DNA of 41,427 bases from a virus. The notes under the pieces were generated by a model. The model was given only the letters and a program-made list of their open reading frames with translations, was not told the origin of the DNA and searched no databases. A program made the position numbers and the translations under genes. Location of the stretch: positions 1-41,427 of IMG/VR virus record IMGVR_UViG_3300037313_000496; one strand, 5' to 3'. Below, in pieces: positions 6,586-22,124 of the stretch. Numbering within the stretch: position 1 is the stretch's first letter; each line of letters opens with the position of its first letter.

Positions 6586-6646
6586 TGGACAACCCGCTTC
6601 GCTAGTCAGATGCACCCGGAACGCTGACCTCACGGTTAGTGAGAGC
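6586..6646 (-). repeat. Dispersed structured repeat, copy D
   Basis: The minus strand reads GCTCTCACTAACCGTGAGGTCAGCGTTCCGGGTGCATCTGACTAGCGAAGCGGGTTGTCCA. By hand alignment 50/61 nt are identical to copy C. Confidence 0.85.
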
Positions 6647-6815
6647 GTTCGGGGTCGCGAGATTCCATGTTGCGCACAACAGCGTGCCAAGCCTCAAATG
6701 GCTTGAACTCCAACAGCCGCTTGTCGCCGCCTTCACGCAGCCACTCCATGAGTTGCTGGTGAAAACTCATCATGGCGCACGAAAGGCAATCGCCATGTTC
6801 TTTGTTCTCGCTCAT
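6636..6815 (-). CDS. Small hypothetical protein (59 aa; below ORF-track cutoff)
   Basis: GGAGCAAGGA then ATG at 6815. Translates to MSENKEHGDCLSCAMMSFHQQLMEWLREGG... The stop TAA lies in the loop of the copy D hairpin. Confidence 0.5.
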   Translation of the reverse strand: MSENKEHGDCLSCAMMSFHQQLMEWLREGGDKRLLEFKPFEAWHAVVRNMESRDPERSH

Positions 6816-6828
6816 TCCTTGCTCCTAT

Positions 6829-6892
6829 GTCTACTTACCGTGAGGTAGACGTTCCGAGTTGAGGTGGTTAGGCCGAAGGCCGGATTGTCCCA
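6829..6892 (+). repeat. Dispersed structured repeat, copy E
   Basis: Reads GTCTACTTACCGTGAGGTAGACGTTCCGAGTTGAGGTGGTTAGGCCGAAGGCCGGATTGTCCCA. Inverted relative to copy D. Confidence 0.85.
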
Positions 6893-7004
6893 ATCTCAAT
6901 TCAAAATACTCTCTCTGACTCATCTCCTTATTCAATCCACAAGAACACTCATTCCAGTATTGATCTAACCAGTACTCACAGGTGGAGGAGTGTTCTCGTG
7001 TCAT
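6831..7004 (-). CDS. Small Cys-rich hypothetical protein (57 aa; start trimmed to MTREHSS)
   Basis: TGATG overlap with the upstream gene. About 42% G+C by hand count of 6901-7000. The C-terminal 22 codons are encoded by repeat copy E. Confidence 0.45.
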   Translation of the reverse strand: MTREHSSTCEYWLDQYWNECSCGLNKEMSQREYFELRLGQSGLRPNHLNSERLPHGK

Positions 7005-7267
7005 CACGCCGCCTCGGTAGGTTTCGCCGAGGGCCGGGGTGTCCAAAAATCTTCACAAATAACATCCACAACATCATGCGTTTCAGCCTCCCCAGTCGCC
7101 TTCCAAAAAGCAGCTTCAGCACAGGCCGCCCATCTGATTGCGCGGCCAGGATCATTATCTCCACTTACAATGTCCGGGATCGCTCCAGATATTTGCTCGG
7201 CGAGCTCCCGCCACATATTTGAAACGCGCTTGCCCGCCGCCATTCCATCAAAATCATCTTCATCCAT
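7004..7267 (-). CDS. Hypothetical acidic protein (87 aa)
   Basis: GGAGG 7 nt upstream of the ATG at 7267. Confidence 0.5.
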   Translation of the reverse strand: MDEDDFDGMAAGKRVSNMWRELAEQISGAIPDIVSGDNDPGRAIRWAACAEAAFWKATGEAETHDVVDVICEDFWTPRPSAKPTEAA

Positions 7268-7300
7268 CACGCCGCCTCCGTTGTGTTGACGTAGCCAGGA

Positions 7301-7843
7301 TCAGTGACGATCAGGCGCGTCGGGGATTGCATCAAACTGCGCTCGCGAAATTCCATGCTTCTGGCAGAACACGTCGGCTGCAACCGGCGCTGCCTTTTTC
7401 GCCAGCCCCATATCGAGGCCAGCCGCTTGGCACTCCTCGATAAGCTGGGCGTAGCTTTTCCGCTTAGAGCGATCCTCCTCGGGACCGCTAATGAGCTTCT
7501 GATATTCGCGCTCGCGACGTTCTTTCTGTTGAGCGCGGCGGATCGGCTCCATTTCGGCCTCACACGCGGCCTTAACCTCGCGAGGCGTCGGCAAGAAATC
7601 TTGCTTGGATGGGATGCCCCGAACCACGTCAGTCACCCGCTCGATAACCTCGCGGGGGTACTCAGCAAGGATGCGCGTGATGCCCGCCGCGTAAGTCGTC
7701 GGGTCATTCGCCTCGCCCCGGCGGAAGCAACCGAACATCAGTTCCGCCCGATCCAGGGCAAAGGCCAGATGATCCTTGTCCAAGGAGTTGTTCTCGGACC
7801 GCCCGGATTCCATCTGTGGGAGTGTTTGCAGTTTTTGCAGCAC
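7301..7843 (-). CDS. Hypothetical protein (about 170-180 aa; start uncertain)
   Basis: Protein-like composition throughout. Overlaps the 3' end of the upstream gene by 35-140 nt, depending on the start chosen (7843, 7813 or 7738). Confidence 0.5.
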   Translation of the reverse strand: MLQKLQTLPQMESGRSENNSLDKDHLAFALDRAELMFGCFRRGEANDPTTYAAGITRILAEYPREVIERVTDVVRGIPSKQDFLPTPREVKAACEAEMEPIRRAQQKERREREYQKLISGPEEDRSKRKSYAQLIEECQAAGLDMGLAKKAAPVAADVFCQKHGISRAQFDAIPDAPDRH

Positions 7844-8828
7844 GTCGGACCTCTAGCGTCGTTTGCGGAACGATTTTGACTTCCGGCAATGGGGCGCGCT
7901 GCAAAGCAATCGCGCGGGCTATGCCGTTCTCGAAATAGTTGATCCGCGACGGCGGCCCGTCGCGCTTCCGGGCAAGTTGCTCGCGGATAGACGCGGTTAT
8001 CGTGTCGTGATCCCAGCCGGCGTTAAGCCACTTTTGGACCGTACGATTGGCGTCGTAGTACCCGGGCTCAGGGTTTTGAGGGTCTTGGCCAATGATCCGA
8101 AGAAGGGAATCCGAGAAAGCAAGATCAGGAGGCGAACCCCGCGCGTGATCACCCTCACCCTCCTTCTGTCCTCTAGCTTCTAGCTTCTGTGGTTTACCCC
8201 CGTCGCCAATATAATTGGCAAGCGGGGTTATCCCCTTTCGACGATTACATGAACGGCAAAGAGCTTGGAGATTCTCAAGATCGTTTGTTCCGCCATGGGC
8301 AATTGGGATTATGTGGTCTATCGTAAAAGCATCAGGTGCATTGCCGCCCGCCCGCTGCATCTGGCAACCACACCCCTTGCAAAGCCCAGACGATGCAGCC
8401 CACACCGCCTCAACCTTAGTTGGGTTGTCCTTCCGTGATATGCGGCGGGACCGCGCTTCCTTTGCTACTGAACCGCCAATCAAGTCAGGCGAGCCGCCCT
8501 GCTTCCCATTGGAGCGGTCGGACTGTTCCTTCTCGTAATCACGAACCATCTTTCGGCTGTAGATCGTTCCATCGGCTGTGCGAGAGAACACGCCGCAGCT
8601 TTCAAGCTCTGCGATAGCGTTGACGGTCTCACGAAGAGGCGCACCGGACAGGGATGCGAGTTGCTTTTCGTTCACCGGCAGGCCGTTAACGAGTAGATGG
8701 CCGTAAGGCTCGGCACCGTGCATGATGGAAATCATTTCCATCCAAAGACCACGCGCCGCCAAGGAGCACATGCGCAACGCCGCGTCGCCACGCCAGTTAT
8801 GAGGATAGAACTTGAACCAGGGCTTCAC
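7704..8828 (-). CDS. DUF1376-like N-terminal domain fused to an HNH endonuclease domain
   Basis: N-terminus KPWFKFYPHNWRGDAALRMCSLAARGLWMEM resembles DUF1376. Central CKGCGC...IDHIIPIAHGGTNDLENLQALCRSCNRRK is an HNH motif. GTG start in a GTGA overlap. Confidence 0.6.
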   Translation of the reverse strand: MKPWFKFYPHNWRGDAALRMCSLAARGLWMEMISIMHGAEPYGHLLVNGLPVNEKQLASLSGAPLRETVNAIAELESCGVFSRTADGTIYSRKMVRDYEKEQSDRSNGKQGGSPDLIGGSVAKEARSRRISRKDNPTKVEAVWAASSGLCKGCGCQMQRAGGNAPDAFTIDHIIPIAHGGTNDLENLQALCRSCNRRKGITPLANYIGDGGKPQKLEARGQKEGEGDHARGSPPDLAFSDSLLRIIGQDPQNPEPGYYDANRTVQKWLNAGWDHDTITASIREQLARKRDGPPSRINYFENGIARAIALQRAPLPEVKIVPQTTLEVRRAAKTANTPTDGIRAVREQLLGQGSSGLCPGSGGTDVRLLPPGRGE

Positions 8829-9007
8829 TCATCCCCCAAGGCAGCCGCCGCTCTGGCGATTGTTAACGCCTCGTCATCAACTACTGTCGTCTTGCTCAAC
8901 CGCTCACTTACCGTGAGGTCGCGCTTACTCGGCGCGCTGAGTAGCGAAGCGGATAGTCCACCCCACTCCTTCATAGTCTCATCAGTGATATGAGAGAGAT
9001 CGGTCAT
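8825..9007 (-). CDS. Small hypothetical protein (60 aa), largely encoded by repeat copy F
   Basis: ATGA overlap with the rusA stop and GTGA overlap with the next gene suggest translational coupling. Confidence 0.4.
   Translation of the reverse strand: MTDLSHITDETMKEWGGLSASLLSAPSKRDLTVSERLSKTTVVDDEALTIARAAAALGDE
8900..8961 (+). repeat. Dispersed structured repeat, copy F
   Basis: Reads CCGCTCACTTACCGTGAGGTCGCGCTTACTCGGCGCGCTGAGTAGCGAAGCGGATAGTCCAC. Same 62-nt length as C, with conserved ends and a divergent core. Confidence 0.85.
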
Positions 9008-9354
9008 GCCGCCTCCTTCACAGTCACACGACAGGCGCCTATGCCCTTTGCCCAGCGAGACGTGACAGACGCCACGTATTTCATGGAGTCGTTCTTGAGG
9101 ACGCCGTGAGCGACCAGCAAATCCTCCACAAATTTTACACGGTTGGTAATGTCGGACTGTACCGAACACGCGCTTTCATCGACCTCAATCAGCAGGTCAA
9201 CGCGGCGGGTTAATGCGACTGGCTTCTGCCGGCGAAGCATCTGTCCTGCCTCCACCTTCCAGGCGTCAACCTCTTTTGTTTTTGTCCGACCACCCCATTG
9301 ATTATTGAAATAGCCATTGTTCGAGCTTGGCGGCACCGGAAGATCGTAGGTCAT
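9004..9354 (-). CDS. rusA: RusA-family Holliday junction resolvase
   Basis: 116 aa. PPSSNN near the N-terminus and a D..N..K...D.L..H.V..DD-type acidic motif, as recalled for RusA. Confidence 0.7.
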
Positions 9355-10184
9355 ACTGCGACCCCCGTAAGTTTCCTGCCCGGCAGAAATGCCGCCTCGC
9401 CAAGATCGGCTGCCTTCTCACGCGCGATCCGACACCACACCTCCGCTTCCTTAAGCGCCCCTGCCGTGTTCGCAACTTCCCGCATGAGCGGGACACATTT
9501 GCGGACGGCGTGAAGAACTGTTGTGTGATCGCGCCCCCCAAAGCGCCGTCCGATTTCCGGCAGAGAGTGGAGGGTTAGCGCCTTTGCAACCGCCATCGCG
9601 ATCTGGCGCGGGCGAACAACCTCGCGTGTGCGCCGTGCTGATAAAAGATCGTCGCGGGTAATACCGAACTCAAGTGCGATTTGCCGCTGCACGTCCGCAA
9701 TCGTCGGGCGGGACTCGCTGGTGAACATTTCCAATTCGAGATTCGCCAGAATCGCGGGCAGGCACTTGTTCACTGGGCAGCGACGAGTGACGGCGAGGTT
9801 CACAAGGATCGGATCAATAACCTTGAGGGCGGCGGTTACGGTTTCCCGCGTCACCTGGAACATGACAGCCACGTCTGGGAGCGTCGCAATTTCAAAGCGG
9901 ACGGACAGCGCTAGAACCAGCTTGCGGGCCTGCACCACCCGGTCAATCGGCGCGCCGTTGATAATCTCATCCCGCGAGACCTTCAGGTTTTCGGCCACGG
10001 CATTGATAATCCGCGCATAGGCAAAAAACGGATCAACAATGATGGGATTCGCGGGAACGATCGGAGCCGCTTCCACATTGACAATCCGCTGCGGCTGCGG
10101 GGCTAATTTCCGCAGACGGTCACGCGCGGCTTTCGTCCGCGCCATGATCGCGTGAATGTCCTCGTTGGATTCTTGCAAACTCAT
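9351..10184 (-). CDS. DnaA C-terminal (domain IV)-containing DNA-binding protein
   Basis: [40 protein letters not shown] matches the Bac_DnaA_C signature. A degenerate second copy lies upstream. No AAA+ module. Confidence 0.7.
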
Positions 10185-10214
10185 ACCATCCCCCGATGTT
10201 GTCGGTTTGTTCAG

Positions 10215-10754
10215 TTAGCCAGCAAGGTTCAACTTCTGAGCGCGAACCAAGTCGCTGAGCGTTAAGTAGTCGCAAGCGGAAACGTCTGACGTTTCGAGAT
10301 AAAATAGGGACTTGATTGTCCGGGGCGGGATGCCGCTCAGCCTTGCCACTCGGGCCAACTGATCAGCACGAGATTCGTGCGGCATGTGCGGAAGGCTGAG
10401 CCGCCAAATCATGTCTCGGCTTTCGTCCCGCAGTCGATCATTGAGAGCATCCCGTGCCGAATAGGCGGTCATGCCCACTTCGAGAGAAGGAAACTCGACT
10501 TTCCCCGACTGGAGACCCGCAATGAAATCAAGGATTTCTTGCGCCGGTGAGAACCACTCCCCGGTTAAGCGATAACGAGAGAAACGGAGATGCAGCGCAC
10601 GTTCTGTCTTCTTCCATCCCGGAATGTGGTGGAGCAGGTACAGGTGGGCATCGCTGCCGGTCTGCAAGATAGCGAGACGACTCTGCGGCTTCCGCGCGGT
10701 GCCAATCTTAATTGGACCGTTTTCATCCCGCTGGATAAAGTAGACCGATCTCAT
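10215..10754 (-). CDS. T5orf172/MUG113 (GIY-YIG superfamily-like) domain protein
   Basis: VYFIQ..NGPIKIGTA....RLAILQTG........E..LH..F...R..GEWF pattern. Confidence 0.6.
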   Translation of the reverse strand: MRSVYFIQRDENGPIKIGTARKPQSRLAILQTGSDAHLYLLHHIPGWKKTERALHLRFSRYRLTGEWFSPAQEILDFIAGLQSGKVEFPSLEVGMTAYSARDALNDRLRDESRDMIWRLSLPHMPHESRADQLARVARLSGIPPRTIKSLFYLETSDVSACDYLTLSDLVRAQKLNLAG

Positions 10755-11158
10755 CGCGAGCCGCCCCCACTCAGGAGCGACGAGGCCCGCGAAAGATGCG
10801 TCTCAATCTCGCTAATTTGCTCAGAAGCAAGGTGAGCGCCGCCTTGCCGAGCGATTTCCAGCTCATGCGTTAATCTCGCTATTTCGGATTCAAGCTCACG
10901 CACTAACAACGCCTGAAGCCGCCCCCGGATCGTGTCGTCAATCCGCTTGACTCGCCCCCGAATTAAATTCTCGACAGTCCCAAGCCCAACCTGGAGCTTG
11001 CGGGCCAGTGTTTCACGCGCCGATTGACTGGAAACACCCCGCAGGCGTTCCCGGCGTTCTAGCGTCTGAGCGATCGATATTGCACTTGTCATCGCTGGCT
11101 TCTTTGTCCCGAAATCTGGCGACATTCTCCGCACTCCCTTCGCTATGGTTTGATCCAT
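10751..11158 (-). CDS. Putative HTH DNA-binding protein with C-terminal coiled coil (start 11158 or 11125)
   Basis: SARETLARKLQVGLGTVENLIRGR is HTH-like, followed by a heptad-like helix. GGAG lies upstream of the 11125 ATG. Confidence 0.45.
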   Translation of the reverse strand: MDQTIAKGVRRMSPDFGTKKPAMTSAISIAQTLERRERLRGVSSQSARETLARKLQVGLGTVENLIRGRVKRIDDTIRGRLQALLVRELESEIARLTHELEIARQGGAHLASEQISEIETHLSRASSLLSGGGSR

Positions 11159-11177
11159 GACGAAGGCACTCACAGTC

Positions 11178-11348
11178 TCACCGCAGTTGATGGCCTCGCG
11201 TGTGGTCCAGTCGCTCTTGCAGGAGCGCAGGACCAAGCCTGTTACCGTTTGCGTCGTATTGAATTTTGAACGAAGGACTGAGACGCGCGACCAACATCAG
11301 CGCGATCAACAATGCAGCGACAAGGATCGCACGTCCTTCAACCGTCAT
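11178..11348 (-). CDS. Small single-TM protein (56 aa; below ORF-track cutoff)
   Basis: GAGGGGGA RBS, then MTVEGRAILVAALLIALMLVARLS... Confidence 0.35.
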   Translation of the reverse strand: MTVEGRAILVAALLIALMLVARLSPSFKIQYDANGNRLGPALLQERLDHTRGHQLR

Positions 11349-11575
11349 GACGCGATCCCCCTCGCGTTATGAAAAGGCGCGCGGACGCGGCAACGAGTCT
11401 GAAGTACCGCACTCCGCGCGCCAGTCTTCCGATGCAGGAGGGAGGTGGAGGGCCTTGCACCGGGAAGGAAGTTCAAAACAGCAAGCGGGATTCCCGCACG
11501 CTCACCGCAATTTGAAGATGGAACATGCAACCGACGCGCGTTTATACTTCCTTCATATTGGTGAAGGAGCGCGTC

Positions 11576-11857
11576 ATGGGTTCCATCGCAAAGAAGGACG
11601 GCCCGCCCCTGTGCGAACCCGTCCATATTCCGACCGTGTATTGCTGCGGTATCGAACCGCCGACCAGACTTCCGGGAAATCTGTTCCTGTTTCTGTATTG
11701 GGAAGAACGCGACGGGCCGAACGGCCGGGAGCGCGTGATTGTCGATCGACAGATTTGGCCGATCAGTCGATTGGCGCAGGCGATCAGAGTGACCAGCCTT
11801 GCCCTCGCGGATATTCCGCTTGTCGCGGAAGACGATCGGGTGATGGTGATGAACTGA
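11576..11857 (+). CDS. Hypothetical protein (93 aa), counter-oriented next to the switch
   Basis: Perfect AAGGAG 7 nt before the ATG (MGSIAKKDGPP...). Protein-like composition, unlike the overlapping long ORFs. Confidence 0.55.
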   Translation: MGSIAKKDGPPLCEPVHIPTVYCCGIEPPTRLPGNLFLFLYWEERDGPNGRERVIVDRQIWPISRLAQAIRVTSLALADIPLVAEDDRVMVMN

Positions 11858-11862
11858 GGCCG

Positions 11863-12081
11863 TCATTCTTCGGCCCCGCGCTTCAAATCAAATTTCAGGA
11901 TGGTGGCGGGATCAATGCCCGTCACTTCCTCGACTTTCGGCAGAAGGGTCTTTCGAACGGACCTTGTGCCGGATTCCCAGCGGCCGACCGTCACCTCCGA
12001 CACGTCAAGCTCTTTGCCGAGAGCCTTGCGCGTCAAACCCTTGGATTCGCGATAAAGCCGTAAGGGGTGCTTGCCAACCAT
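11863..12081 (-). CDS. XRE-family HTH regulator (72 aa), Cro-like by position
   Basis: GLTRKALGKELDVSEVTVGRWESG is HTH_3-like. First gene of the minus-strand operon. The promoter -10 lies 6 nt from the ATG. Confidence 0.7.
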   Translation of the reverse strand: MVGKHPLRLYRESKGLTRKALGKELDVSEVTVGRWESGTRSVRKTLLPKVEEVTGIDPATILKFDLKRGAEE

Positions 12082-12146
12082 ACACCGTATCTAAACCAAA
12101 ACGGTAGGCTCGTCAATAGGGCCTCTTACCGATTTGGCGCGGTGAC
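12082..12146. promoter_or_regulatory. Divergent switch region with a sigma70-like promoter and two operator-like 13-mers
   Basis: Minus strand: TTGACG (12116-12111), 17 nt, TAGATA (12093-12088). CCTACCGTTTTGG lies at 12108-12096 (reverse orientation) and CTTACCGATTTGG at 12125-12137. Confidence 0.6.
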
Positions 12147-12491
12147 ATGTACCGAGATGGTTGGCAGGTTATCCACATGGTTACGCGAATTGGCCCACGG
12201 CGCCCGAGACGGACTTACATTGCCGAATGGCGCGAGAGCCGGGGTTTGACCCAAATAGAGCTGGCGGCCCGTCTGGAGACCACAGACGTGACGATCTCGC
12301 GCTGGGAGACCGGCAAGCGGCAACCGGATATAAACGCGCTGGCGGCCATCGCTGAGGCTCTGGACGTGGATTTAACGGACCTCTACCGGCACCCGGACCA
12401 GCCCAGCGCAGACGCACTGCTGCGGGACCAGCCGCAGGACGTGCGGGAACAAGCGATTAAGCTGATAAAGGCTATTCGGAAGGCCGTTTAG
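12147..12491 (+). CDS. XRE-family HTH regulator (104-114 aa), CI-like by position; no S24 peptidase domain
   Basis: GLTQIELAARLETTDVTISRWETG is HTH_3-like. Alternative start at 12177. Divergent from the Cro-like gene. Confidence 0.7.
   Translation: MYRDGWQVIHMVTRIGPRRPRRTYIAEWRESRGLTQIELAARLETTDVTISRWETGKRQPDINALAAIAEALDVDLTDLYRHPDQPSADALLRDQPQDVREQAIKLIKAIRKAV
12169..12177 (+). promoter_or_regulatory. Perfect DnaA-box 9-mer TTATCCACA overlapping the candidate ATG at 12177
   Basis: Exact match to the canonical E. coli-type DnaA box. About 0.3 exact matches are expected by chance in this window. Confidence 0.3.
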
Positions 12492-12693
12492 GACCGCGCC
12501 AGGCTTGGACAGCCAAGTAAATCTGCCGGTACCATTGATATATTAGGTACAGTAGGAAAACCGCGACCCCGAGGCACGCCCCTATAGCGAAAATGGCGGT
12601 GAACGGGATCGGGTAGTGCCAAATGGCGATTCCGAGGTCGCCGAGGCCCCGGAAGAAAGCCCGCACATACTCGGAAATTTCTGCCAGCGACAT
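12472..12693 (-). CDS. Membrane protein (73 aa; start trimmed to MSLAEISEY) inside the immunity region
   Basis: Two hydrophobic helices (IPFTAIFAIGACLGVAVFLLYLIY). Convergent with the CI-like gene, overlapping it by 20 nt. Confidence 0.5.
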   Translation of the reverse strand: MSLAEISEYVRAFFRGLGDLGIAIWHYPIPFTAIFAIGACLGVAVFLLYLIYQWYRQIYLAVQAWRGPKRPSE

Positions 12694-12770
12694 AACCAGC
12701 CCTCGCCCCTGGCGCACCCTACCGAAAATCCCCCGACCACAACACGTTGATTCTCCACGACTTTATTCTT

Positions 12771-12835
12771 ATTACCATTTTGGATAAGTTTTTTCTGTCT
12801 GCCCTATTGCAATCCTACCGTTTTGGTATAGTCTC
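12771..12835. promoter_or_regulatory. Early-operon promoter/operator region (OL-like)
   Basis: TTGCAA (12808-12813), 16 nt, TAGTCT (12830-12835). The spacer holds CCTACCGTTTTGG (12815-12827). A variant ATTACCATTTTGG lies at 12771-12783. AT-rich. Confidence 0.55.
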
Positions 12836-12876
12836 TCTCCATCGCATCGGGCATAGCCCCGGCAGGGAGAGAGAAT

Positions 12877-14618: not shown

Positions 14619-14965
14619 AGGATATGGGACAATCCGCTCGCGAAACGCTCGCTCCTCAGATCAACGAGCCTCATCAGCCAGCGGTTAGCAACAGCGAGCA
14701 AGGTGCGTTTACGCCGGGGCCATGGCGTCTGCATTCAAACCTTACTGACCGTATTTGCTCGGGTCCGATTGGACCGGAAGCTATCGATATTGCTGATTGC
14801 TCGGCCGTCCGGCGTCCCGCATCTTCGGGCGAACTATCCGCCAACGCCCGCCTGATCGCCGCCGCTCCCGATTTGCTTGCTGCCTGCAAGGATTGTCTTG
14901 GAAACCGGGGTGACTGGCTAGATGTCATGGGCGCCGCGATCCGCCGCGCGGAGGGCCAATCATGA
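14615..14965 (+). CDS. Hypothetical protein (116 aa) with TPGPW...ANARLIAAAPDLLAA motif
   Basis: Motif recalled from many phage hypothetical proteins. The N-terminal ~30 codons are encoded by repeat copy A. Confidence 0.55.
   Translation: MKDMGQSARETLAPQINEPHQPAVSNSEQGAFTPGPWRLHSNLTDRICSGPIGPEAIDIADCSAVRRPASSGELSANARLIAAAPDLLAACKDCLGNRGDWLDVMGAAIRRAEGQS
14627..14704 (-). repeat. Dispersed structured repeat, long form, copy A
   Basis: Plus strand reads GGACAATCCGCTCGCGAAACGCTCGCTCCTCAGATCAACGAGCCTCATCAGCCAGCGGTTAGCAACAGCGAGCAAGGT. Shares identical blocks of 15, 11, 11 and 10 nt with copy B. Confidence 0.8.
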
Positions 14966-15464: not shown

Positions 15465-16117
15465 ATTTCTCCGGCGCACAAAAGACGATGCTGGCTGAGA
15501 AGCTGTGCACAGACAAGGTAAAGACACGCGATCAAGGTGGCCGCAAGGTTTCCTATATCGAGGGTTGGCACGCCATCGCAGAAGCCAATCGCATATTCGG
15601 GTTTGATGCGTGGTCGCGGGAAACTGTTGAATTGCGCTGCGTTGCGGAGCGCGAGCGGAAAATCGGCCGCGATAACAACCCCGGATGGGGCGTGTCCTAT
15701 ATCGCCAAGGTCCGCGTCACCGTAGGTGATCTTGTTCGCGAGGGCTGCGGCACCGGCCACGGGATCGACCGTGACTTGGGGCAGGCGCATGAAAGCGCGC
15801 TCAAGGAAGCCGAGACGGACGCGATGAAGCGCGCCCTCATGACCTTCGGCAATCCGTTCGGCTTGGCGCTGTACGACAAAGAACAAAACAACGTGGCCGC
15901 GCCGGTTGACGAGTCCACAAGGGCTTACATCGCCGCCTGTGAGTTGGCGATCAGCACAGCGACGAACGCCAAGGAATTACACGACTGGTGGATGAGCGAT
16001 GCCGAGAAATCAAACCGCCGAGCGATTGGACTTGAAGCCGAAGAAGTGGCTCGGCTCAAGCAACTCGTTCTCGACAAGAAAGAAGCCCTGAAAACTCAGA
16101 CCAAGGAAGCAGCGTAA
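15461..16117 (+). CDS. Rad52/Rad22-family single-strand annealing protein
   Basis: [23 protein letters not shown] ... [27 protein letters not shown] matches the recalled Rad52-family signature. Adjacent to ssb. Confidence 0.75.
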
Positions 16118-16569
16118 TGGCCGGATCAGTCAATAAAGTCATCCTACTCGGGAACGTCGGCAAGGACCCCGAGGTGCGCCGCACTCAGCAAGGCGCCCCG
16201 ATTGTCACCCTTTCTATCGCGACCTCGGAAACCTGGCGAGACAAAAACAGTGGCGAGCGCAAGGAAAAGACCGAGTGGCATCGCGTGGTGATCTTCAACG
16301 AAGGTCTCTGCAAGGTCGCGGAGCAATACGTCAAGAAGGGCAGCAAGCTCTATATTGAAGGCGCGCTGCAAACCAGAAAGTGGACCGACAAGGACGGGGT
16401 TGAGAAATACTCAACCGAGGTCGTCCTGAACGGCTTCAACTCGGTCCTCACGATGCTCGATGGCCGCGCCGACAGCGAAACCGAGCGCAAGAACGACATG
16501 CGAGCGGACCACGCCAAGGACGCCAAAAAAGCGCCAGCCGAAGACATGGACGACGAAATTCCTTTTTGA
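16117..16569 (+). CDS. ssb: Single-stranded DNA-binding protein
   Basis: [16 protein letters not shown]...TEWHRVV OB-fold signature and acidic C-terminal tip DDEIPF. Confidence 0.9.
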
Positions 16570-16572
16570 GCC

Positions 16573-17007
16573 ATGAAATTCCTCGCCGTGAAGCATCTTG
16601 GTTCGCTCAAGCCCGCAGACGATGCGGGGGCGCAAGAGCTTTCAAAGATCGCTCACGGCGAGTTCGTCCAGGTCGAGATCAAGAGACCGCGCAATATCCG
16701 CCATCACCGCATGTTCTGGGCACTGATGACCATCGTTTGGGAAAATATGGATCAGGAACGCTACCCGTCTGTGGAGGACTTTGTGGCGGCCGTGAAGATC
16801 GCGGCTGGTCTGCGCACGCGCATTGAGCTTCCGAACGGTGACGTGGGGTTCATCCCCGGCAGCATCGCCTTCCACAAGATGGATCAGGCCGCGTTCTCTG
16901 AGTTCTATGACCGCGTATGCGACTTGATCGCCAAGCACTTCCTGCCCGGCGTTACGGCGGATGAGCTTCGCAATGAAGTCTCGCTCATGATCGGGGTGAG
17001 CGCATGA
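16573..17007 (+). CDS. NinB/Orf-like or DUF1367-family protein
   Basis: IKRPRNIRHHRMFWALM and a later SIAFHKMDQAAFSEFYDRV parallel the lambda NinB / DUF1367 layout as recalled. Lies in the recombination module. Confidence 0.5.
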   Translation: MKFLAVKHLGSLKPADDAGAQELSKIAHGEFVQVEIKRPRNIRHHRMFWALMTIVWENMDQERYPSVEDFVAAVKIAAGLRTRIELPNGDVGFIPGSIAFHKMDQAAFSEFYDRVCDLIAKHFLPGVTADELRNEVSLMIGVSA

Positions 17008-17384
17008 CCCGCAGCGTCGAGGAATGGATCGGCAAGACGGATGACCAGGCGATCCCGCCTCGCGTGCGACTACGGGTTTTCGAGAGGCATGGCGGCATTT
17101 GCCATCTGTCCGGTCGGAAGATCATGCCGGGCGATGCGTGGGATGTGGATCATGTAATCGCTCTGGTCAATGGCGGCGAGCATCGGGAGTCGAACATGGC
17201 CCCCGCGCTGCGCACCGAGCATCGGAAGAAGACTGCGCGTGATGTTGCGCAGAAAGCCAAGGATCGGCGCATCCGGGCGAAGCATTTGGGAATCAAGAAG
17301 CCGAGCCGCTTTGCAACGGCGCGGAATGGCAAGTTCAAGCAGAAGGTCGGCGGCGGAATCGTGCCGCGTCAACATCGGGGATAG
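17004..17384 (+). CDS. HNH endonuclease
   Basis: CHLSGRKI...DVDHVIALVNGGEHRESNMAPALRTEHRKKT. Confidence 0.75.
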   Translation: MTRSVEEWIGKTDDQAIPPRVRLRVFERHGGICHLSGRKIMPGDAWDVDHVIALVNGGEHRESNMAPALRTEHRKKTARDVAQKAKDRRIRAKHLGIKKPSRFATARNGKFKQKVGGGIVPRQHRG

Positions 17385-17387
17385 GAC

Positions 17388-17783
17388 ATGAACTCGGTAT
17401 CTTGGTTTATTTATCTTGGTGACGTGGCTGGCCGAACCAGTGAGGCAGTTTCCAGCATTCTACTTGGCACCGTAGTTGCCGCCTGTTTCGCGGCAATATT
17501 CAGCCCGTTGGCACTAATGATGATGGATGACTTCAAAATATCGAAGTCAGACATAAAGAACCGCGTTGTCCGCGCCCTGAAGCCAATAGCATTTGGCTAC
17601 ACAGCTCTCTTTATCCTTTATCTGTTTCTTCCGTCGCAGAACGCACTCTATGCCGTCGCCGCATCAGAGATTGGCGAGCGCGTCGTGCAATCCGAGCAAG
17701 TGCGCGGCGTTGCCGATGATGCCACGAAGGCGCTCCGCCAGTGGATCAAGCGTCAGATCGAACCTGAGAAGCAACAGAAATAG
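17388..17783 (+). CDS. Membrane protein (131 aa, 2-3 TM), lower G+C
   Basis: Hydrophobic helices. Hand count of 17401-17600 gives about 50% G+C. Its stop codon abuts repeat copy C. Confidence 0.55.
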   Translation: MNSVSWFIYLGDVAGRTSEAVSSILLGTVVAACFAAIFSPLALMMMDDFKISKSDIKNRVVRALKPIAFGYTALFILYLFLPSQNALYAVAASEIGERVVQSEQVRGVADDATKALRQWIKRQIEPEKQQK

Positions 17784-17844
17784 GTCTCACTTACCGTGAG
17801 GTCGTCGTTCTGGATTCACCTGGTTAGCGAAGCGGATTGTCCAC
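17783..17844 (+). repeat. Dispersed structured repeat, copy C (fills the whole intergenic spacer)
   Basis: Reads GGTCTCACTTACCGTGAGGTCGTCGTTCTGGATTCACCTGGTTAGCGAAGCGGATTGTCCAC. It is followed directly by the ATG at 17845. Confidence 0.9.
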
Positions 17845-18573
17845 ATGTCTTCTCAATCAATACAGACCCACCTCGATCCAGCGACGGTAGAGGAATGCGC
17901 GAAGGTGGCGGAAGCCGCAGACCGCGATCCGCACGCGCTTTCGACGTTTCAGGGCGTGGAGATCGCCTCCGCCATCCGCTCTCTAACTGCGGGGCGAGAT
18001 ACGCAGAACTCAGCCGGGGCGTGTAAGGCCTCCCATTGCGGCCCGTTCGCTGATGGGAGTGATCCTGAGGGAACTCAGGATTCGGCCCCGGCTGGGACTT
18101 CGCCAACCGATGAAGCGATCCGGCATGCCATCGAGCAGTTTACGTCGCCGGCCATGGCAAAGGGTGATGTTCACAGCGGTCCAGGCGCAATCATCTGGGC
18201 TGAACAATGGGGCTTCATCACAACGGCCCTGCGCGATCTGTTCGGCAAACCCTCCCCCTCGCAGCCGGTCGCGGGGCTGACGGAAGTCTTGCGAGACGCT
18301 GAGAATGCAATCGTTCACCTGAATGACGAGGTCGCATGTGAAGAAACTCTTCACAGCATTCGTACCGCCATCGACCGCCTCTCGTCCTCGCCTGTGAGCG
18401 TGAGCGAGGAGGAGTTGGCGCGACTGATCGATCCCTACGCATTTGACATGGACGACGATCAAGCGTCGCCAACGGAGCGCGAGATTTGGGAGGCTCATGC
18501 CCCGCGCAAGCAACACGAGGCAACACTAAAAGCCCGCGCCCTTCTCAGCCAGTTCAGCATCGGGAGGAAGTGA
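17845..18573 (+). CDS. Hypothetical protein (242 aa)
   Basis: Long ORF with protein-like composition; no motif recognised. Confidence 0.55.
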   Translation: MSSQSIQTHLDPATVEECAKVAEAADRDPHALSTFQGVEIASAIRSLTAGRDTQNSAGACKASHCGPFADGSDPEGTQDSAPAGTSPTDEAIRHAIEQFTSPAMAKGDVHSGPGAIIWAEQWGFITTALRDLFGKPSPSQPVAGLTEVLRDAENAIVHLNDEVACEETLHSIRTAIDRLSSSPVSVSEEELARLIDPYAFDMDDDQASPTEREIWEAHAPRKQHEATLKARALLSQFSIGRK

Positions 18574-18574
18574 G

Positions 18575-18796
18575 ATGCGGTTTTGGTTTGATACCGAGTT
18601 CTACGAAGATGGTAAGACCATCGAACTCATTTCAATCGGCGTCGTGTCGCAAGACGGACGTGAGTACTACGCCGAAACGCCGGGATCAGACCGCCTCGCC
18701 CACCAACACCCATGGTTGCGTGAGAATGTGTGGCCCCATCTACTCGGCCCCAACGCACAAAAATCCCGCGCCGCCATCGCCAAGGGGAGCAAGTAG
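18575..18796 (+). pseudogene. N-terminal fragment (73 aa) of a DnaQ/Rv2179c-like 3'-5' exonuclease
   Basis: MRFWFDTEFYEDGKTIELISIGVV..DGREYYA carries only the Exo I motif. Recalled full-length homologues are about 170-190 aa. The ORF stops just before the next gene. Confidence 0.45.
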
Positions 18797-19324
18797 ATGG
18801 CGGACGCTCTCCATCAATCTCAGCTCGCCCCCGAGAACAATAAATTTCACACCGGCGTCACTGAGAACGGAAAACAGAAGTTCTATTGGCTAACGCCGTG
18901 GGGTGCGCCCGAGTTCGTCAAGCTCAAGGAAGAGTTTGGACCGTTCGACTTCGATCCGTGCCCCTTCCCCAAGCCGGAAGACTTTGACGGCCTCACATGC
19001 GAGTGGGGTCAGAACAATTACGTCAACCCGCCGTTCGGCTCAATCTGGCACCAAGGGCCCGGCGAGAAAAAGCCAAGAAAGAAAGGCCCCACAGCTTGGG
19101 TCAAGAAGTCGATCCAAGAATGGCGCAAGGGCAAGCGCGTCGTACTCGTCTACCCCGTCGATAAGTGGGTTCTGATGATCATGAAAGAGTTGGTCGGCGA
19201 GCACGGATCCGTCCGCAATCTCGGTGACGTGCGCTGGCTCGCGACCGACGACGGATCCGTCGGCAAAGGAACGGGCCGACACATCGCCTGCTTCATCTTT
19301 GAACCGAAGGACACGCCCCAATGA
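18797..19324 (+). CDS. Putative DNA N6-adenine methyltransferase (phage Dam-like)
   Basis: FDFDPCP...DGL..W....YVNPPFG (motif IV NPPF). Small, 175 aa. Confidence 0.5.
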   Translation: MADALHQSQLAPENNKFHTGVTENGKQKFYWLTPWGAPEFVKLKEEFGPFDFDPCPFPKPEDFDGLTCEWGQNNYVNPPFGSIWHQGPGEKKPRKKGPTAWVKKSIQEWRKGKRVVLVYPVDKWVLMIMKELVGEHGSVRNLGDVRWLATDDGSVGKGTGRHIACFIFEPKDTPQ

Positions 19325-19917
19325 CCACCACACCAGAGCAAGGGTTCAACGCCGGGGTAGAAGCGGCGAAGGCAAAGAACGACGAGCTGACCGAGACCGA
19401 ATGGCGGATCATCCGAGCCGCGAAAGCGGATGAGGCGCTGTCAGATTCCGGGCGCAAAGCAGTAATCGATAATTCGTTCGCAAAGATCGCAGCATTCGCG
19501 CGATCCAATCAGGCAATCCACGCCCTCAAACTCCCCGAGACAGTGCCGGCCTCTTGCCCCGCCTGCCACGATGAAACGGATTGCAGCAACGTCCGCACCT
19601 GCAATGCGATAGAAGAAGCCTACGCAGCCGAGACAGCGCCGGCCGGGGATGCCGAGAAGCTGGCTGACAAGCTAGCGCGCGACATTGCCTACGATTTACG
19701 CATGGGTCCGGTGCATTGCTTCAACCTGACGCCGACGGAACGCGACCTGATCATCGCCTCACTCCGCGCCGCGCCGCAGTGGCAGTCGCTAACATGCGAT
19801 GAGCAGTTCGCGCTCGCAAAACAGATCGCCGCGAACATCGGCTATGTGCTGACGCCCGAACCGGATCACCCCGATAGCCCGCATTGCCGCGCCACCTCCG
19901 TGCAGGGAGGTGAGTGA
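19321..19917 (+). CDS. Hypothetical protein (198 aa)
   Basis: ATGA overlap; protein-like composition. Confidence 0.5.
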   Translation: MTTTPEQGFNAGVEAAKAKNDELTETEWRIIRAAKADEALSDSGRKAVIDNSFAKIAAFARSNQAIHALKLPETVPASCPACHDETDCSNVRTCNAIEEAYAAETAPAGDAEKLADKLARDIAYDLRMGPVHCFNLTPTERDLIIASLRAAPQWQSLTCDEQFALAKQIAANIGYVLTPEPDHPDSPHCRATSVQGGE

Positions 19918-20559
19918 ATGGCGCATCGCCCCAAAGCTCTTGATCTTTGCTGCTGCGCTGGCGGTGCCAGCATGGGCTTGTGGCGCGCGGGCTTTGATGT
20001 AGTCGGCGTCGATATTAAGCCACAGCCGCGCTACCCGTTCATGTTCATCCAGGCCGACGCACTCGACGTGCGGTTTCAGGGGTTCGATTTCATCTGGGCG
20101 TCGCCGCCATGTCAGGCGCATACGCTGGCACAGCGCATTCAAAAGAATACGCACCCCGATATTATCGCGCCAATCCGGGGGCGGCTCGCATCGTCCGGCA
20201 AGCCATATTGTATCGAAAATGTTGTAGGTGCCCCGTTACTGGAACCGGTTGAGCTTTGCGGGGCGATGTTCGGCCTGCGCGTTTACCGCCACCGGCTCTT
20301 TGAGGCCAATTTTACGATCCCGGTCCCCGAACACCCGGCGCACACCGCGCCGCTTCGGAAGATGGGTCGCCGCCCTGAGCCAGGAGATTTTATGCATGTT
20401 GTTGGCAATTTCTCGGGCGTCCAGCAAGCGCGAGAAGCCATGGGCATTGACTGGATGGCGCGCGACGAGCTTCGCGAAGCCATACCGCCAGCCTATTCCG
20501 AACACATCGGCCGCGCCGCAATGGCGTTGCTAAAGCCCCTCGCACAGGCAGCGGAGTAG
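19918..20559 (+). CDS. DNA (cytosine-5) methyltransferase, short form
   Basis: Motif I DLCCCAGG, motif IV SPPCQ, motif VI ENV (CIENVVGA). Confidence 0.8.
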   Translation: MAHRPKALDLCCCAGGASMGLWRAGFDVVGVDIKPQPRYPFMFIQADALDVRFQGFDFIWASPPCQAHTLAQRIQKNTHPDIIAPIRGRLASSGKPYCIENVVGAPLLEPVELCGAMFGLRVYRHRLFEANFTIPVPEHPAHTAPLRKMGRRPEPGDFMHVVGNFSGVQQAREAMGIDWMARDELREAIPPAYSEHIGRAAMALLKPLAQAAE

Positions 20560-20566
20560 CCCCCCC

Positions 20567-20845
20567 ATGACCCGGCCTAGCGCACTCACGGCGGCGCAAT
20601 TCATTATCCTTGAACGGATGTCCGATATGCCGAAAGAATATTGGCAGCGCGAGGATGGATTGCGCTGCGAGCCGGGCGTCATCCAGCTTTCGGGTTGGCG
20701 ATACGCATGGACGCTTTGGCGGCTACGTCGCCTGCGCTTAATCGAACGAGAAAAATTCTACAGCGGGCGCCGATGGCTGTGGGCATACCGCCCCACCAAC
20801 GCCGGCCGCGCCGCTCTGGAAGGCCCGGAAGGAGAGAGGAAATGA
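20567..20845 (+). CDS. Hypothetical protein (92 aa), possibly winged-helix
   Basis: Basic, W/R-rich. No firm motif. Confidence 0.45.
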   Translation: MTRPSALTAAQFIILERMSDMPKEYWQREDGLRCEPGVIQLSGWRYAWTLWRLRRLRLIEREKFYSGRRWLWAYRPTNAGRAALEGPEGERK

Positions 20846-21042
20846 GAGAACGGATCACGTATTGGAAATGCTCGCACTGCCACGGCACCGGGAGAACGAT
20901 CTGGGGTCACGGCGATACGGCTCGCGCCGAGACATGTTTCTATTGCGATGGAACGGGCAACGCTTTCGTTGATGGCGCAACCGAATGCCACAAACGACGA
21001 CTCGAAGAAATCGACACGCGGGATCGCGGAGACCGCAAGTGA
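20842..21042 (+). CDS. DnaJ-type zinc-finger protein (66 aa)
   Basis: Two CxxCxGxG motifs (CSHCHGTG and CFYCDGTG). ATGA overlap with the upstream gene. Confidence 0.55.
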   Translation: MRERITYWKCSHCHGTGRTIWGHGDTARAETCFYCDGTGNAFVDGATECHKRRLEEIDTRDRGDRK

Positions 21043-21398
21043 AAGACCTCATAGAGAAGCTGGAGCGGGCGAGCGGCCCGAGCCGGGAGTTGGACGAGCA
21101 AATCAAGCTCGCTCTGGCCGCGCAGTCAATTTCATGTCGCGCCACATATCAGGAAACGGTCGCGCTGGTGGGCGGCAATCTCGATGATGAGCCGCTAGCC
21201 TACACCGGAAGTCTGGCGACGTGGCGCAGACTCGTTCCGCCCGACTGCTCGTTTTCGGTTGGAGATACCGGCCCTAACGATTGCCCACTGGCCTGCGTCA
21301 CGCGCGGCAGCACCGATTACACCGGCGAGGCCGCAACGCCCGAACTCGCCCTCTGCATCGCCGCTCTCCGCGCTAGATCGGATGGAGGAGAAGGATGA
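21039..21398 (+). CDS. Hypothetical protein (119 aa, GTG start)
   Basis: GTGA overlap with the upstream stop. The track ORF starts earlier, inside the previous gene. Confidence 0.45.
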   Translation: MKDLIEKLERASGPSRELDEQIKLALAAQSISCRATYQETVALVGGNLDDEPLAYTGSLATWRRLVPPDCSFSVGDTGPNDCPLACVTRGSTDYTGEAATPELALCIAALRARSDGGEG

Positions 21399-21637
21399 CG
21401 GTCGAACTGTCCGACGAACAATATGGAGCCGTAGCCCGCGCGTTGGTTGTGATAGCAGCCGGGAAGCGAGTAACCAATGAAGGACGATTTAGGCGGATAC
21501 CGCGCGCGGAAATGATTACTCGTGCAAGGGAAGTGTGCACAGCAATCAACTTGCAATACCTCGGTGATGGCAGAGGCGGTTCCAGCTTCCCTGAAGAAAT
21601 CGGCCTCGGAAACTTGCGCAAGGAGGCCCAGCCATGA
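21395..21637 (+). CDS. Hypothetical protein (80 aa)
   Basis: ATGA overlaps at both ends. Confidence 0.45.
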   Translation: MTVELSDEQYGAVARALVVIAAGKRVTNEGRFRRIPRAEMITRAREVCTAINLQYLGDGRGGSSFPEEIGLGNLRKEAQP

Positions 21638-22062
21638 CCTCTCCCACCAAGCGAGTGCCTCAAAAAATGCTGTGCCACTTTTGCCGATCCGACGATGTTC
21701 ACATTATCGAATGTGAGAACGAATCGGACGGCTGTTCGATCTTCTGGGCTGAATGCGATTCCTGCGGAGCGCGTGGACCGACCAGCGAATACAAGGATGG
21801 TGCCGCGATCCACTGGAACGCCGCCGCCCCCGAGCCTCCAGCAGAGGCGGAAATGGTCGATAAGGCCGTTGCTTGGGACACGCTTATTACCCGCAGCGGA
21901 GAAGCGGCCAGACTTCGCGAGGCCCTGACCGATGCGCTGGCGTTCATGAAAGACGTCCGCGATCAGCGCGGTGACAGCGGGGTTGGAATCCTCATCCGCA
22001 ATGCCGAAGCCGCCCTCTCCCGCCAGAGCCAAGGAGTGAATTGTGGACAATCCGCTCGCTGA
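21634..22062 (+). CDS. Lar-like restriction-alleviation domain protein with C-terminal extension
   Basis: C.FC....(beta hairpin)...C..CGARGP......AI..WN pattern, as recalled for the Lar family. Confidence 0.55.
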   Translation: MTSPTKRVPQKMLCHFCRSDDVHIIECENESDGCSIFWAECDSCGARGPTSEYKDGAAIHWNAAAPEPPAEAEMVDKAVAWDTLITRSGEAARLREALTDALAFMKDVRDQRGDSGVGILIRNAEAALSRQSQGVNCGQSAR

Positions 22063-22124
22063 AGAAGCTCGCTCCTCGCCAGCACGAGCCTCATCGCCTG
22101 AGAATTAGCGCCACCGAGCAAGGT
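22045..22124 (-). repeat. Dispersed structured repeat, long form, copy B
   Basis: Plus strand reads GGACAATCCGCTCGCTGAAGAAGCTCGCTCCTCGCCAGCACGAGCCTCATCGCCTGAGAATTAGCGCCACCGAGCAAGGT. It spans the gap between the Lar-like and excisionase-like genes. Confidence 0.8.

Follow-up and report, generated by a model that had tools for sequence, protein, structure and literature searches.

A candidate boundary element repeated six times in the early operons of a lambda-like temperate phage

The mosaicism of tailed phages may arise through random illegitimate recombination followed by selection or through exchange at conserved linkers; the question is an old one, and clear reusable linkers are rare, the PeSLs (promoter-early stem-loops) of T4-type phages being the main example. 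PeSLs have been proposed to provide linker homology, and crossovers have been mapped inside the motif (Arbiol et al. 2010, PMC2839356). We describe here a repeat of 55-80 nt that occurs in six copies (A to F) in the IMG/VR virus record IMGVR_UViG_3300037313_000496, analysed over positions 1 to 41,427 (the window, 41,427 nt). From sequence comparison, the copies may tentatively be read as a lineage-specific interspersed boundary (linker) element for the exchange of early-gene cassettes, an interpretation to which we give somewhat less than an even chance. The phages that carry it are probably a highly mosaic temperate group of alphaproteobacteria.

The element may be classed among the phage interspersed boundary repeats, and its closest published analogue is the T4-type PeSL, which it resembles in genomic behaviour, without promoter or terminator. 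In both cases, dispersed composite repeats (~60-100 nt) are confined to plastic early regions (PMC2839356; PMC4122927), are placed after a stop codon and ahead of the ribosome-binding site that follows, and flank small orphan ORFs (open reading frames) that vary among relatives; here too, the copies flank small variable ORFs and differences between relatives map to the repeats. However, PeSLs are defined by a strong sigma-70 promoter and a terminator stem-loop, all pointing with transcription, while the copies show neither above the level of chance. A promoter test reports 6 promoter-like sites in 19 kb against 7.0 expected, and only D with its flank reaches 9/12 (CTGACT-17-AATAAT), the -10-like AATAAT lying in a conserved island next to that copy (6533-6585). 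A terminator test finds no T-run in the copies, its sole call being the 5-bp stem at the left end of C, antisense and at chance frequency. Orientation also differs from that of PeSLs, two copies being sense (C, D) and four antisense (A, B, E, F) to local transcription, with three copies inside ORFs. The lambdoid boundary (linker) sequences (Susskind and Botstein; Clark et al. 2001, as cited in PMC3029335) are likewise short conserved patches at gene boundaries between non-homologous modules. In their classical form they are single-copy per junction and have no internal architecture, whereas the present element is reused at six junctions in both orientations and exhibits invariant boxes and a hairpin. 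Lastly, the start-associated sequences (SAS) and extended SAS (ESAS) of Cluster K mycobacteriophages and the stoperators of Cluster A are also lineage-specific short repeats across non-structural genes, found by comparative genomics and of unknown or regulatory function (PMC3203893; PMC3029335). Copy C and the copy of relative L040 recall SAS in that they stand directly before a start codon (GTCC(A)C ATG after the 9-mer in L040). SAS, however, are 13-bp sequences that share the direction of the gene and invariably stand 3-8 bp ahead of its start, unlike a 55-80-nt unit in mixed orientation. Stoperators are 13-14 bp immunity-repressor sites in one orientation, while neither a model search nor a pattern scan finds a copy in the divergent regulatory/immunity control region (12081-12147); this and the split of two sense against four antisense copies speak against a stoperator or operator array.

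Six copies of a composite unit

The six-copy repeat family is real, far beyond chance. A preliminary description, made from the sequence alone, had located the six copies on the strands and positions listed in Table 1, together with a bare 9-mer at 2315-2323 and a 12-mer at 31867-31878, and had taken them for a genuine family conserved at the nucleotide level; all of this is confirmed. An inverted repeat search pairs C with D over 59 nt (83% complementary), and E, F, and C form one direct-repeat family. The pattern ACCGTGAGGT-N25-45-GGRTWGTCC matches four times in the window against 0.00 in 100 shuffles, and GCGGATTGTCC, with at most one mismatch, seven times against 1.48 expected, six of the seven being the copies. 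A sequence-only covariance model was built from nine short copies (window and relatives), leaving out A and B. It finds all four short copies (C to F) as well as A and B (scores in Table 1) and no others in the window; the late arm returns zero matches, in agreement with the initial statement that the copies are confined to the two early operons. Pairwise identity amounts to 81% for C-D, 77% for C-F, 76% for C-E, and 80% for A-B, and to 50-58% between short and long forms; paralogous copies are 66-81% identical. As anticipated, the element matches no catalogued family: Rfam reports no match at the gathering score over the whole window and none on the copies at E<=10 over 6000-23000. No tRNA or tmRNA was found.

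The unit comprises, in order, CTWACCGTGAGGT, a semi-variable core of ~22 nt, (T/G)AG, a hairpin of variable length (box R), and the 9-mer GGRTWGTCC, followed in one orientation by GAGCAAGG. In the nine aligned short copies, C-T-(T/A)-ACCGTGAGGT and CGG-(A/G)-T-(T/A)-GTCC are invariant, and blocks of 13 and 10 nt are unchanging in every short copy and in all relatives. The core, first described as not conserved, is partly so, since CGTTC(C/T)G and CTG(A/G)NTAG recur in the nine-copy alignment. At the left end, a CTCAC-TWACC-GTGAG hairpin (box L) had been assigned to C, D, E, and F, and this assignment does not hold. Copy E is devoid of CTCAC and reads GTCTAC-TTACCGTGAG-GTAGAC, and the 5' arm varies in relatives (CCAAC, TCTAC, TCTGC, CTCTC), where GTGAG is constant and CTWACCGTGAGGT invariant. 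When the slot between D and E is swapped, homology on the D side stops at 6640, the edge of CTAACC, which places the 5' arm of box L on the variable side. The box L hairpin was thus rejected, its 5' arm being neither conserved nor compensated; shuffled versions of the 20 nt upstream fold equally well or better in 5-85% of trials.

By contrast with box L, a small palindrome always lies directly 5' of the 9-mer, and its length changes only through self-complementary additions (Table 1), the box R of L034 and L070 linking the short form to the long form. The mini-hairpin motif GCGAAGC is exact in C, D, F, and relatives, and CCGAAGG lies within E and L040. On the other side of the 9-mer, the ribosome-binding-site-like GAGCAAG(G) follows A, B, E, and F, belongs to the conserved unit, and serves as, or adjoins, the ribosome-binding site of the next gene; GAGCAAGG also closes A and B, and follows F. 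It had been argued that flanking ORFs read the copies on different strands and in different frames. This holds only in part, since the four antisense copies share one reading frame at the complement of box R, box R' (GQSARE, GQSAR*, GQSGLR, GLSASL), each reading GQS or GLS. This shared frame suggests the common descent of an adaptor made of a protein tail, a stop codon, and a ribosome-binding site. The palindrome is nevertheless kept, whereas the peptide sequence varies (GQSARETLA, GQSASRDALA, GQSARETVA).

Three copies occur on each strand, spread over 16 kb and all inside the two early operons. Each operon has a single sense copy, which lies at a distance of ~5.5 kb from the divergent control region. 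Copy E supplies the C-terminal tail and the stop codon of ORF 6831-7004, and copy F lies in frame within a 60-residue ORF (ORF60, 8825-9007) that is translationally coupled at both ends. Copy A encodes residues 5-30 of the 14615-14965 product. Copy C occupies the entire 61-nt gap from the stop at 17783 to the ATG at 17845. ORF 21634-22062 finishes in the first 18 nt of copy B, whose final bases (GAGCAAGGT) abut the ribosome-binding site of the Xis-like gene and precede its ATG at 22130 by 5 nt.

Table 1. Copies of the repeat, associated features, and box R variants (window coordinates)
Feature	Position	Strand	Description
Copy D	6586..6646	-	short form, sense; stop TAA of gene 6636-6815 within CTAACC; 66.7 bits
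Copy E	6829..6892	+	short form, antisense; box R hairpin GGCC-GAA-GGCC; 61.9 bits
Copy F	8900..8961	+	short form, antisense; 9-mer GGATAGTCC; 56.6 bits
Copy A	14627..14704	-	long form, antisense; box R GC GA GCG-TTT-CGC GA GC; E=0.006
Copy C	17783..17844	+	short form, sense; 71.4 bits
Copy B	22045..22124	-	long form, antisense; box R GC GA GCT-TCTTC-AGC GA GC; E=0.035
D/E slot cargo	6636..6815	-	59-aa ORF between inverted copies E and D; unrelated ORFs in relatives
Island downstream of D	6533..6585	-	53-nt conserved leader, ribosome-binding site and ATG of next gene
GAGCAAGG after copy E	6817..6824	-	part of ribosome-binding site of gene 6636-6815
ORF60	8825..9007	-	60-aa ORF with F; ATG to GAGCAAG is a 125-nt island in 6 relatives
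Variable slot	17388..17783	+	between HNH gene 17004-17384 and C; 131-aa ORF
Box R, short copies			GC-GAA-GC (C, D, F); GCC-GAA-GGC (L040); GGCC-GAA-GGCC (E)
Box R, long-type			GC GA GC-GAA-GC GAT GC (L034, L070); A and B forms
Box R, relatives			GC GA GCGC-ATC-GCGC GAA GC (five contigs); GC GA GCG-CATCA-CGC GAA GC (L056)

Copies at the breakpoints of the mosaic

The repeat family is confined to a small lineage of metagenomic relatives. An exact-pattern scan of 185,579 species genomes (one each), which diverged versions would escape, reports no real copy, its six loci all being chance-like single matches without core or hairpin; the alternative of a generic host family of the repetitive extragenic palindrome (REP) or miniature inverted-repeat transposable element (MITE) type, raised in the preliminary description, was thus not found there. 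No copies were detected in PLSDB plasmids or INPHARED phages, and the 2.9 million contigs of IMG/VR yield one contig with copies, to which a look-up through neighbouring proteins added no useful further relatives. A literature search on motif strings returned unrelated primers only. Metagenome and Logan assemblies, in turn, contain a small set of relatives that carry copies. The same phage is present in four JGI samples (L045-L048), L046 and L047 being a variant with a different immunity/replication segment; L049 is a more distant phage of 44.7 kb; and about fifteen short contigs also carry copies. The comparisons rest on about a dozen independent sequence variants.

Comparison among these relatives shows that the copies sit where cassettes have been replaced, gained, lost, or fused, whole ORFs differing immediately beside them, and that copies have themselves been broken and recombined. 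In place of the cargo found in the window, the inverted E/D pair encloses 121-aa YAcAr-like and 76-aa ORFs in L027, L046, and L047, other ORFs in L034, and a 99-aa ORF in L049; these cargoes have no mutual similarity at E<=1, and an exact-protein look-up returns the same context only. Although L046 and the window share 99.1-99.6% identity over 13 kb, they differ in D/E cargo, so that this swap must be recent. L040 has neither D, cargo, nor E, and carries a single copy upstream of a 57-aa gene. The island downstream of D stays with that copy in L027, L034, L046, and L049, though the gene behind it differs. In the slot before C, the HNH gene stands 22 nt from C in L037 and L038, which have no gene corresponding to 17388-17783, while L049 has a 58-aa ORF and the window an unrelated one. 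Copy A and the 12 nt before it (14615-14707) encode a 31-residue leader, MKDMGQSA(S)R(E/D)..SNSEQG, that precedes three or more protein bodies without mutual relation in separate metagenomes (P0018, P0042, PF27050 members; L052-L054). Most PF27050 homologues are devoid of the leader, and L051 has only its second half. In ORF60, the N-terminus and F are constant but the C-terminal third differs, with four different C-termini and unrelated upstream flanks; the region in L049 is 99.5% identical over 184 nt. Right half copies are found in L034 (854-893) and L049 (982-1017 and 1907-1950), a left half copy in L049 (1246-1280), and half of A in L051. The L040 copy is chimeric, with a C-like left part, a D-like middle, and an F-like right part, as are the E copies of L034 and L070 (L034E, L070E), which combine an E-like left part, a hairpin of the long-form type, and the 9-mer of F.

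The same comparison shows the copies as near-identity islands amid genes that are diverged or unrelated: orthologous copies of the window and L049 are 98-100% identical, with flank genes at 67-91% or unrelated. Between 5000 and 23000, the window and L049 form a patchwork of 34-115-nt islands of 87-100% identity, and 12 of the 17 short islands of high identity overlap the start or stop of a gene, where 3.0 would be expected (P<1e-4). To judge from these islands, gene-junction recombination is general across the lineage, beyond the repeat family.

Among the roles proposed in the preliminary description, the comparative data agree best with that of an element for the boundary or the recombination of small gene cassettes. 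The unit would mark the ends of small exchangeable gene cassettes in both early operons, and its copies would act as portable homology patches. A Rad52-like single-strand-annealing recombinase, whose family tolerates diverged, short homology, would use the copies to swap or move cassettes without breaking genes, as has been proposed of T4 PeSLs. Portable homology leaves the block-wise conservation and the hairpin unexplained. Since two blocks are invariant while the core drifts and the hairpin lengthens only by self-complementary insertions, we infer in addition that the element may have its own sequence-specific reader, which would most likely see the hairpin and the 9-mer in single-stranded DNA (or RNA), where the mini-hairpin is stable.

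Several points weigh against this linker function. Mosaic junctions in the lineage also occur at many gene boundaries without a copy, so the element is not needed for exchange, and the link of the copies with breakpoints may reflect a mere conserved intergenic position. L049 has copies but no Rad52-family match in the corresponding region. Homology-driven recombination alone would not give block-wise conservation. No circles, deletions, or inversions between copies were observed, although no mini-circle search was made, and four variants of the phage keep the six copies in the same places and orientations; because direct and inverted repeats should destabilise the genome, some other benefit must pay for them. 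Finally, domain searches of the phage genes report no reader protein (no HUH/Y1 enzyme, primase, or Cas).

In another reading, the copies would have no function of their own and would be remnants of one duplicated intergenic junction, shuffled with cassettes and homogenised by gene conversion. The generality of junction islands in the lineage would fit this, as would the presence of a second, shorter junction repeat at three gene ends, the frame and the GAGCAAGG ribosome-binding-site piece shared by the antisense copies, as expected from descent of a tail-stop-ribosome-binding-site adaptor, and the lack of thermodynamic or covariation signal beyond box R. However, the 13-nt and 10-nt blocks remain invariant in every short copy and in the relatives, for all the divergence of the paralogues, and the box R hairpin is kept across at least six length variants. 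Moreover, C and D are inverted with respect to the adaptor orientation, where a tail and a ribosome-binding site would be senseless, and orthologues remain nearly identical across phages whose flanks are diverged or unrelated. Such a functionless junction therefore appears very improbable. The second junction repeat, GAGGCGGC(A/G)TGA, is located at 9004-9015, 7267-7278, and 7004-7015 (- strand); it closes three genes consecutive in the operon, with proteins ending in ...EAA*, and overlaps the next start (GTGATG / CATGA). In L034 and L049, this junction is joined straight to an E-like copy.

The copies might also belong to a small non-autonomous mobile element, resembling MITEs, REP/PATE elements, or IS200/IS605 ends, mobilised by an enzyme in trans and spreading in the lineage, with E'...D as a cargo-carrying derivative bounded by 60-nt inverted ends. 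Position does vary, as the L040 copy lies upstream, not downstream, of the 57-aa gene; the inverted pair has outward-facing GGACAATCC...GGATTGTCC ends with varied cargo between them; a sub-terminal hairpin stands beside a conserved single-stranded motif, and a TTAC is conserved as well; and A and F would be in-frame insertions in ORFs (14615-14965 and ORF60), comparable to Rickettsia palindromic elements, the A segment being absent from most PF27050 homologues. Nevertheless, a single copy has no terminal inverted repeats, no target-site duplication was found, the L040 'empty site' is not clean, and the phage has no transposase, RAYT, or HUH gene. Together with positional orthologues fixed in all sampled relatives and the failure to find real copies in species genomes, plasmids, or cultured phages, this makes mobility a poor prospect. 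As to defined families, a MITE was rejected for lack of terminal inverted repeats in the single copy and, for the E'-cargo-D unit, because 14 unrelated nt distinguish the L040 'empty' site, without duplication. REP elements and bacterial interspersed mosaic elements (BIMEs), which open with 5' GTAG ahead of an imperfect palindrome of 20-40 nt and depend on a cognate Y1 (RAYT) gene, were rejected as well: F and L040 alone contain GTAG (GAGTAGC), the others reading TTAG or CTAG, the stems of the short form are 2-4 bp, and there is no Y1/HUH enzyme.

Integron attC sites provide a further comparison, as imperfect structured repeats of 57-141 nt, with conserved outer boxes and a variable centre, that close promoter-less cassettes and function as a folded single strand; here, a tyrosine recombinase gene adjoins copy B. 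The copies could be imagined as recombination sites of a phage-borne integron-like cassette system, in which a phage or host enzyme would recognise the folded strand (mini-hairpin with GGATTGTCC, and CTTACCGTGAGGT), cut, and join. Small early genes would then behave as discrete cassettes that the system captures, inverts, shifts from one slot to another, and passes from phage to phage. We consider such a system highly doubtful. An attC identity was rejected, as there is no GTTRRRY core (C has GTTAGCG, D ACTAGCG, F AGTAGCG) and no RYYYAAC at the other end; the R''/L''-L'/R' symmetry is absent, and a single element is not a long imperfect palindrome. Furthermore, attC cassettes are arrayed head to tail, which is not the case here, and the integrase is of the ordinary phage type by Pfam.

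The box R hairpin and its possible recognition

The preliminary description had also inferred selection on a fold. Overall, the evidence for it is weak, as the fold z-scores of every copy, taken as DNA on either strand, range from -1.35 to +0.8, none better than shuffles, and RNAalifold reports 9 pairs with no compensatory change for the short form. In the long form, the preferred RNAalifold fold competes with the box R hairpin and includes one doubtful covarying pair. What stands of the claim is the box R hairpin, which receives some support from variants in length that preserve pairing (it is retained through at least six length or sequence variants) and from one clean compensatory change (G-C in A vs T-A in B). 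Compared with same-base shuffles, only the hairpins of E and L040 stand out (p 0.004-0.04), the long forms having p 0.05-0.45, and the long-form 'hairpin' is equally readable as a direct repeat of the quasi-palindromic hexamer GCGAGC. Two further pairings were rejected. The long-range pairing CGTTCCG/CGGATTG proposed by RNAalifold undergoes one-sided changes only and is broken in F. A core hairpin, present in F, L040, and partly D, seems to be compensatory (CGCGC/GCGCG in F vs CGTCG/CGATG in L040), but C and E lack the stem and the F orthologues alter it in contradictory strand senses.

GCGAAGC and CCGAAGG are extraordinarily stable DNA mini-hairpins (Tm 76.5 C) that nearest-neighbour models miss, and they occur at the G4 primase site, RSF1010 ssiA, and the N4 hairpin promoters (PMC13037366). 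The tandem G.A mismatches of the long form exist solely on the strand that reads from box L to box R. Together, the mini-hairpin motifs and these strand-specific mismatches favour a reading as single-stranded DNA. Since hairpin length varies only by self-complementary insertions, the flanking boxes would be juxtaposed only if the hairpin is extruded.

These features would also suit an array of recognition sites for a DNA-acting protein, either a stoperator-like regulator or a single-strand priming or hairpin-promoter signal; in the priming version (G4 ori, RSF1010 ssiA, or N4 promoter type), the mini-hairpin would keep the single-strand-binding protein (SSB) off and present the adjacent 9-mer. 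We regard this as unlikely, though less so than the other alternatives. Two invariant blocks around a drifting core, a hairpin that grows only self-complementarily, strand-confined mismatches, and an orientation independent of transcription are all consistent with it. So is the likeness to the mini-hairpin signals, box R carrying GCGAAGC in C, D, and F and the ssiA motif CCGAAGG in E and L040, with a conserved stretch directly after it. Candidate phage binders are the protein with two DnaA domains IV, two helix-turn-helix (HTH) proteins, and two HNH proteins. Against it stands the absence of copies from the control region 12081-12147. The G4, ssiA, and N4 signals, for their part, depend on a dedicated primase or polymerase, on a defined strand, and on an origin or early promoter, whereas the copies are divided 3:3 between strands, which would fit neither one displaced strand nor the lagging-strand templates of one origin, and no phage primase or single-strand-dependent polymerase was found among the early genes. 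Nearest-neighbour folding shows no excess stability, although such models miss mini-hairpins, and the copies stay the same although the window and L046/L049 differ in their DnaA-domain protein. A lagging-strand arrangement was tried and dropped: an origin between D and E would account for the four short copies but not for A and B, and 5 of 16 patterns would agree by chance.

Alternatively, the copies could act in early transcripts as RNA elements, whether as sites of processing or stability, as an antitermination signal, or as a decoy for a defence protein that binds RNA; in one variant, sense and antisense copies would pair in trans or in cis, E' and D forming a stem around the cargo ORF. All copies indeed lie within two long early operons, each with exactly one sense copy at about the same distance from the control region. 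On a single transcript, 27 nt of E and D show 81% complementarity, and in L068 two changes in the F core give G.U pairs on the mRNA strand only. However, Rfam, fold z-scores, and the short-form alignment (no compensatory pair) give no sign of an RNA structure, and the 2-bp GC-GAA-GC stem is not stable as an RNA hairpin. Four of the copies run antisense, three of them within translated sequence, the mismatches of the long form turn into U.C on the mRNA strand, L049 and L069 alter the F core in the opposite strand sense, and in L049 the partner of E, D, is only a half copy. An RNA role thus appears improbable. The suggestion of a solitary CRISPR-repeat-like decoy is not borne out, in view of the 2-bp short stems, the lack of an array, and the absence of any match at E<=10 to the CRISPR-DR families of Rfam; real stems occur in A, B, and E, which run antisense to their operons, and the sense copies C and D have only 2-bp stems. 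The hairpin followed by GGATTG may resemble the ends of type I-C CRISPR repeats.

Several short motifs were checked by eye and dropped. These include the alphaproteobacterial LexA box GTTC-N7-GTTC, CcrM GANTC sites (only in the core of C), the RfaH ops-like GGTAGCG, and the hammerhead core CUGAUGA, which occurs in A but reads GCGAUGA in B. ATTGTC, which presumably resembles the R388 nic site, was likewise considered by eye and dropped. A DnaA box was also dropped: TTGTCCACA (9-mer and flank) matches the consensus at 8/9 in C and B, and the CACA part is not conserved.

Genome setting and meaning for the lineage

The window represents a circularly permuted phage genome with a GC content of 58.7%. 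An exact 127-nt direct repeat (1-127 = 41301-41427) identifies it as a circularly closed assembly of a 41,300 bp genome, and the - strand late genes run on across the window ends. The early region is lambda-like and has a nin-like stretch with rusA. The - strand transcription unit runs from ~12081 leftwards and on into the terminase and virion genes, its genes encoding, in order, an HTH protein, T5orf172, a DnaA-domain-IV protein, RusA, an HNH/replication fusion, and small ORFs. The + strand unit, from 12147, encodes a pentapeptide protein, a Rad52-family annealing protein and an SSB (15461-16569), DUF1367, and HNH, and then methyltransferases, Lar-like and Xis-like proteins, and the integrase (22303-23283, Pfam Phage_integrase match). 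Bradyrhizobium, Paracoccus, Sulfitobacter, and Caulobacter are the hosts of the cultured phages that come closest in protein or in weak DNA similarity, and hence the host is likely alphaproteobacterial.

Several neighbouring genes deserve mention. The DnaA-domain-IV protein (9351-10184, - strand, 277 residues) returns two Bac_DnaA_C matches (E=4e-33) and no other DnaA domain; at the equivalent site, L046, L047, and L049 encode a shorter (191-199 residues), largely different protein with a Bac_DnaA_C domain. In the 374-residue fusion (7704-8828, - strand), an HNH endonuclease domain (residues 150-199) is set between an N-terminus and a C-terminus that are both replication-protein-like, and residues 251-318 match phrog_3926, 'replication initiation protein'; after ORF60, L049, L068, and L070 have in its place a 277-289-residue protein without HNH. 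The 126-residue HNH gene 17004-17384 (+ strand) is 91% identical in nucleotides between the window and L049, far above its neighbours, a degree of identity that would suit an endonuclease gene that is selfish or was exchanged of late; in every relative seen, it lies 0-1 gene upstream of a C-type copy. Gene 13682-14356, which encodes the pentapeptide-repeat protein with a DUF5758 C-terminal domain, contains at least 15 tandem 15-nt units (13763-14077).

Ahead of the terminase genes lie a strong terminator-like hairpin (5348-5383, - strand; 15 pairs and a T-run) and, upstream of it, a TTGACA-containing stretch (5504-5555), both kept at 92-100% in L027, L046, L049, and L040 despite differing flank genes. 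This layout resembles a late promoter with an early terminator (Q-type antitermination unit), and the gene upstream of it (5967-6539, with a 194-residue alternative in relatives) may be a candidate late regulator. A 33-nt exact repeat, CCTTGAATGCAAAAACCCGCCACGATGGGCGGG, is located at 30798-30830 and 31830-31862, and two looser copies of a AAAAACCCGCC...GGGCGGG hairpin at 561-584 and 27509-27532; all look like (bidirectional) late-arm terminators. The 12-nt box R fragment at 31867-31878 starts 5 nt after one of the 33-nt repeats.

With one 55-80-nt unit at six junctions, the lineage is a compact and testable case of linkers in a lambda-like temperate phage, and it offers natural 'before and after' arrangements, half and chimeric copies, and a Rad52-type annealing gene nearby. 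The two invariant boxes and the mini-hairpin are not explained by recombination alone and may therefore point to a factor that recognises single-stranded nucleic acid. Should the element be merely a conserved junction, it would still document mosaicism with unusually regular boundary sequences.

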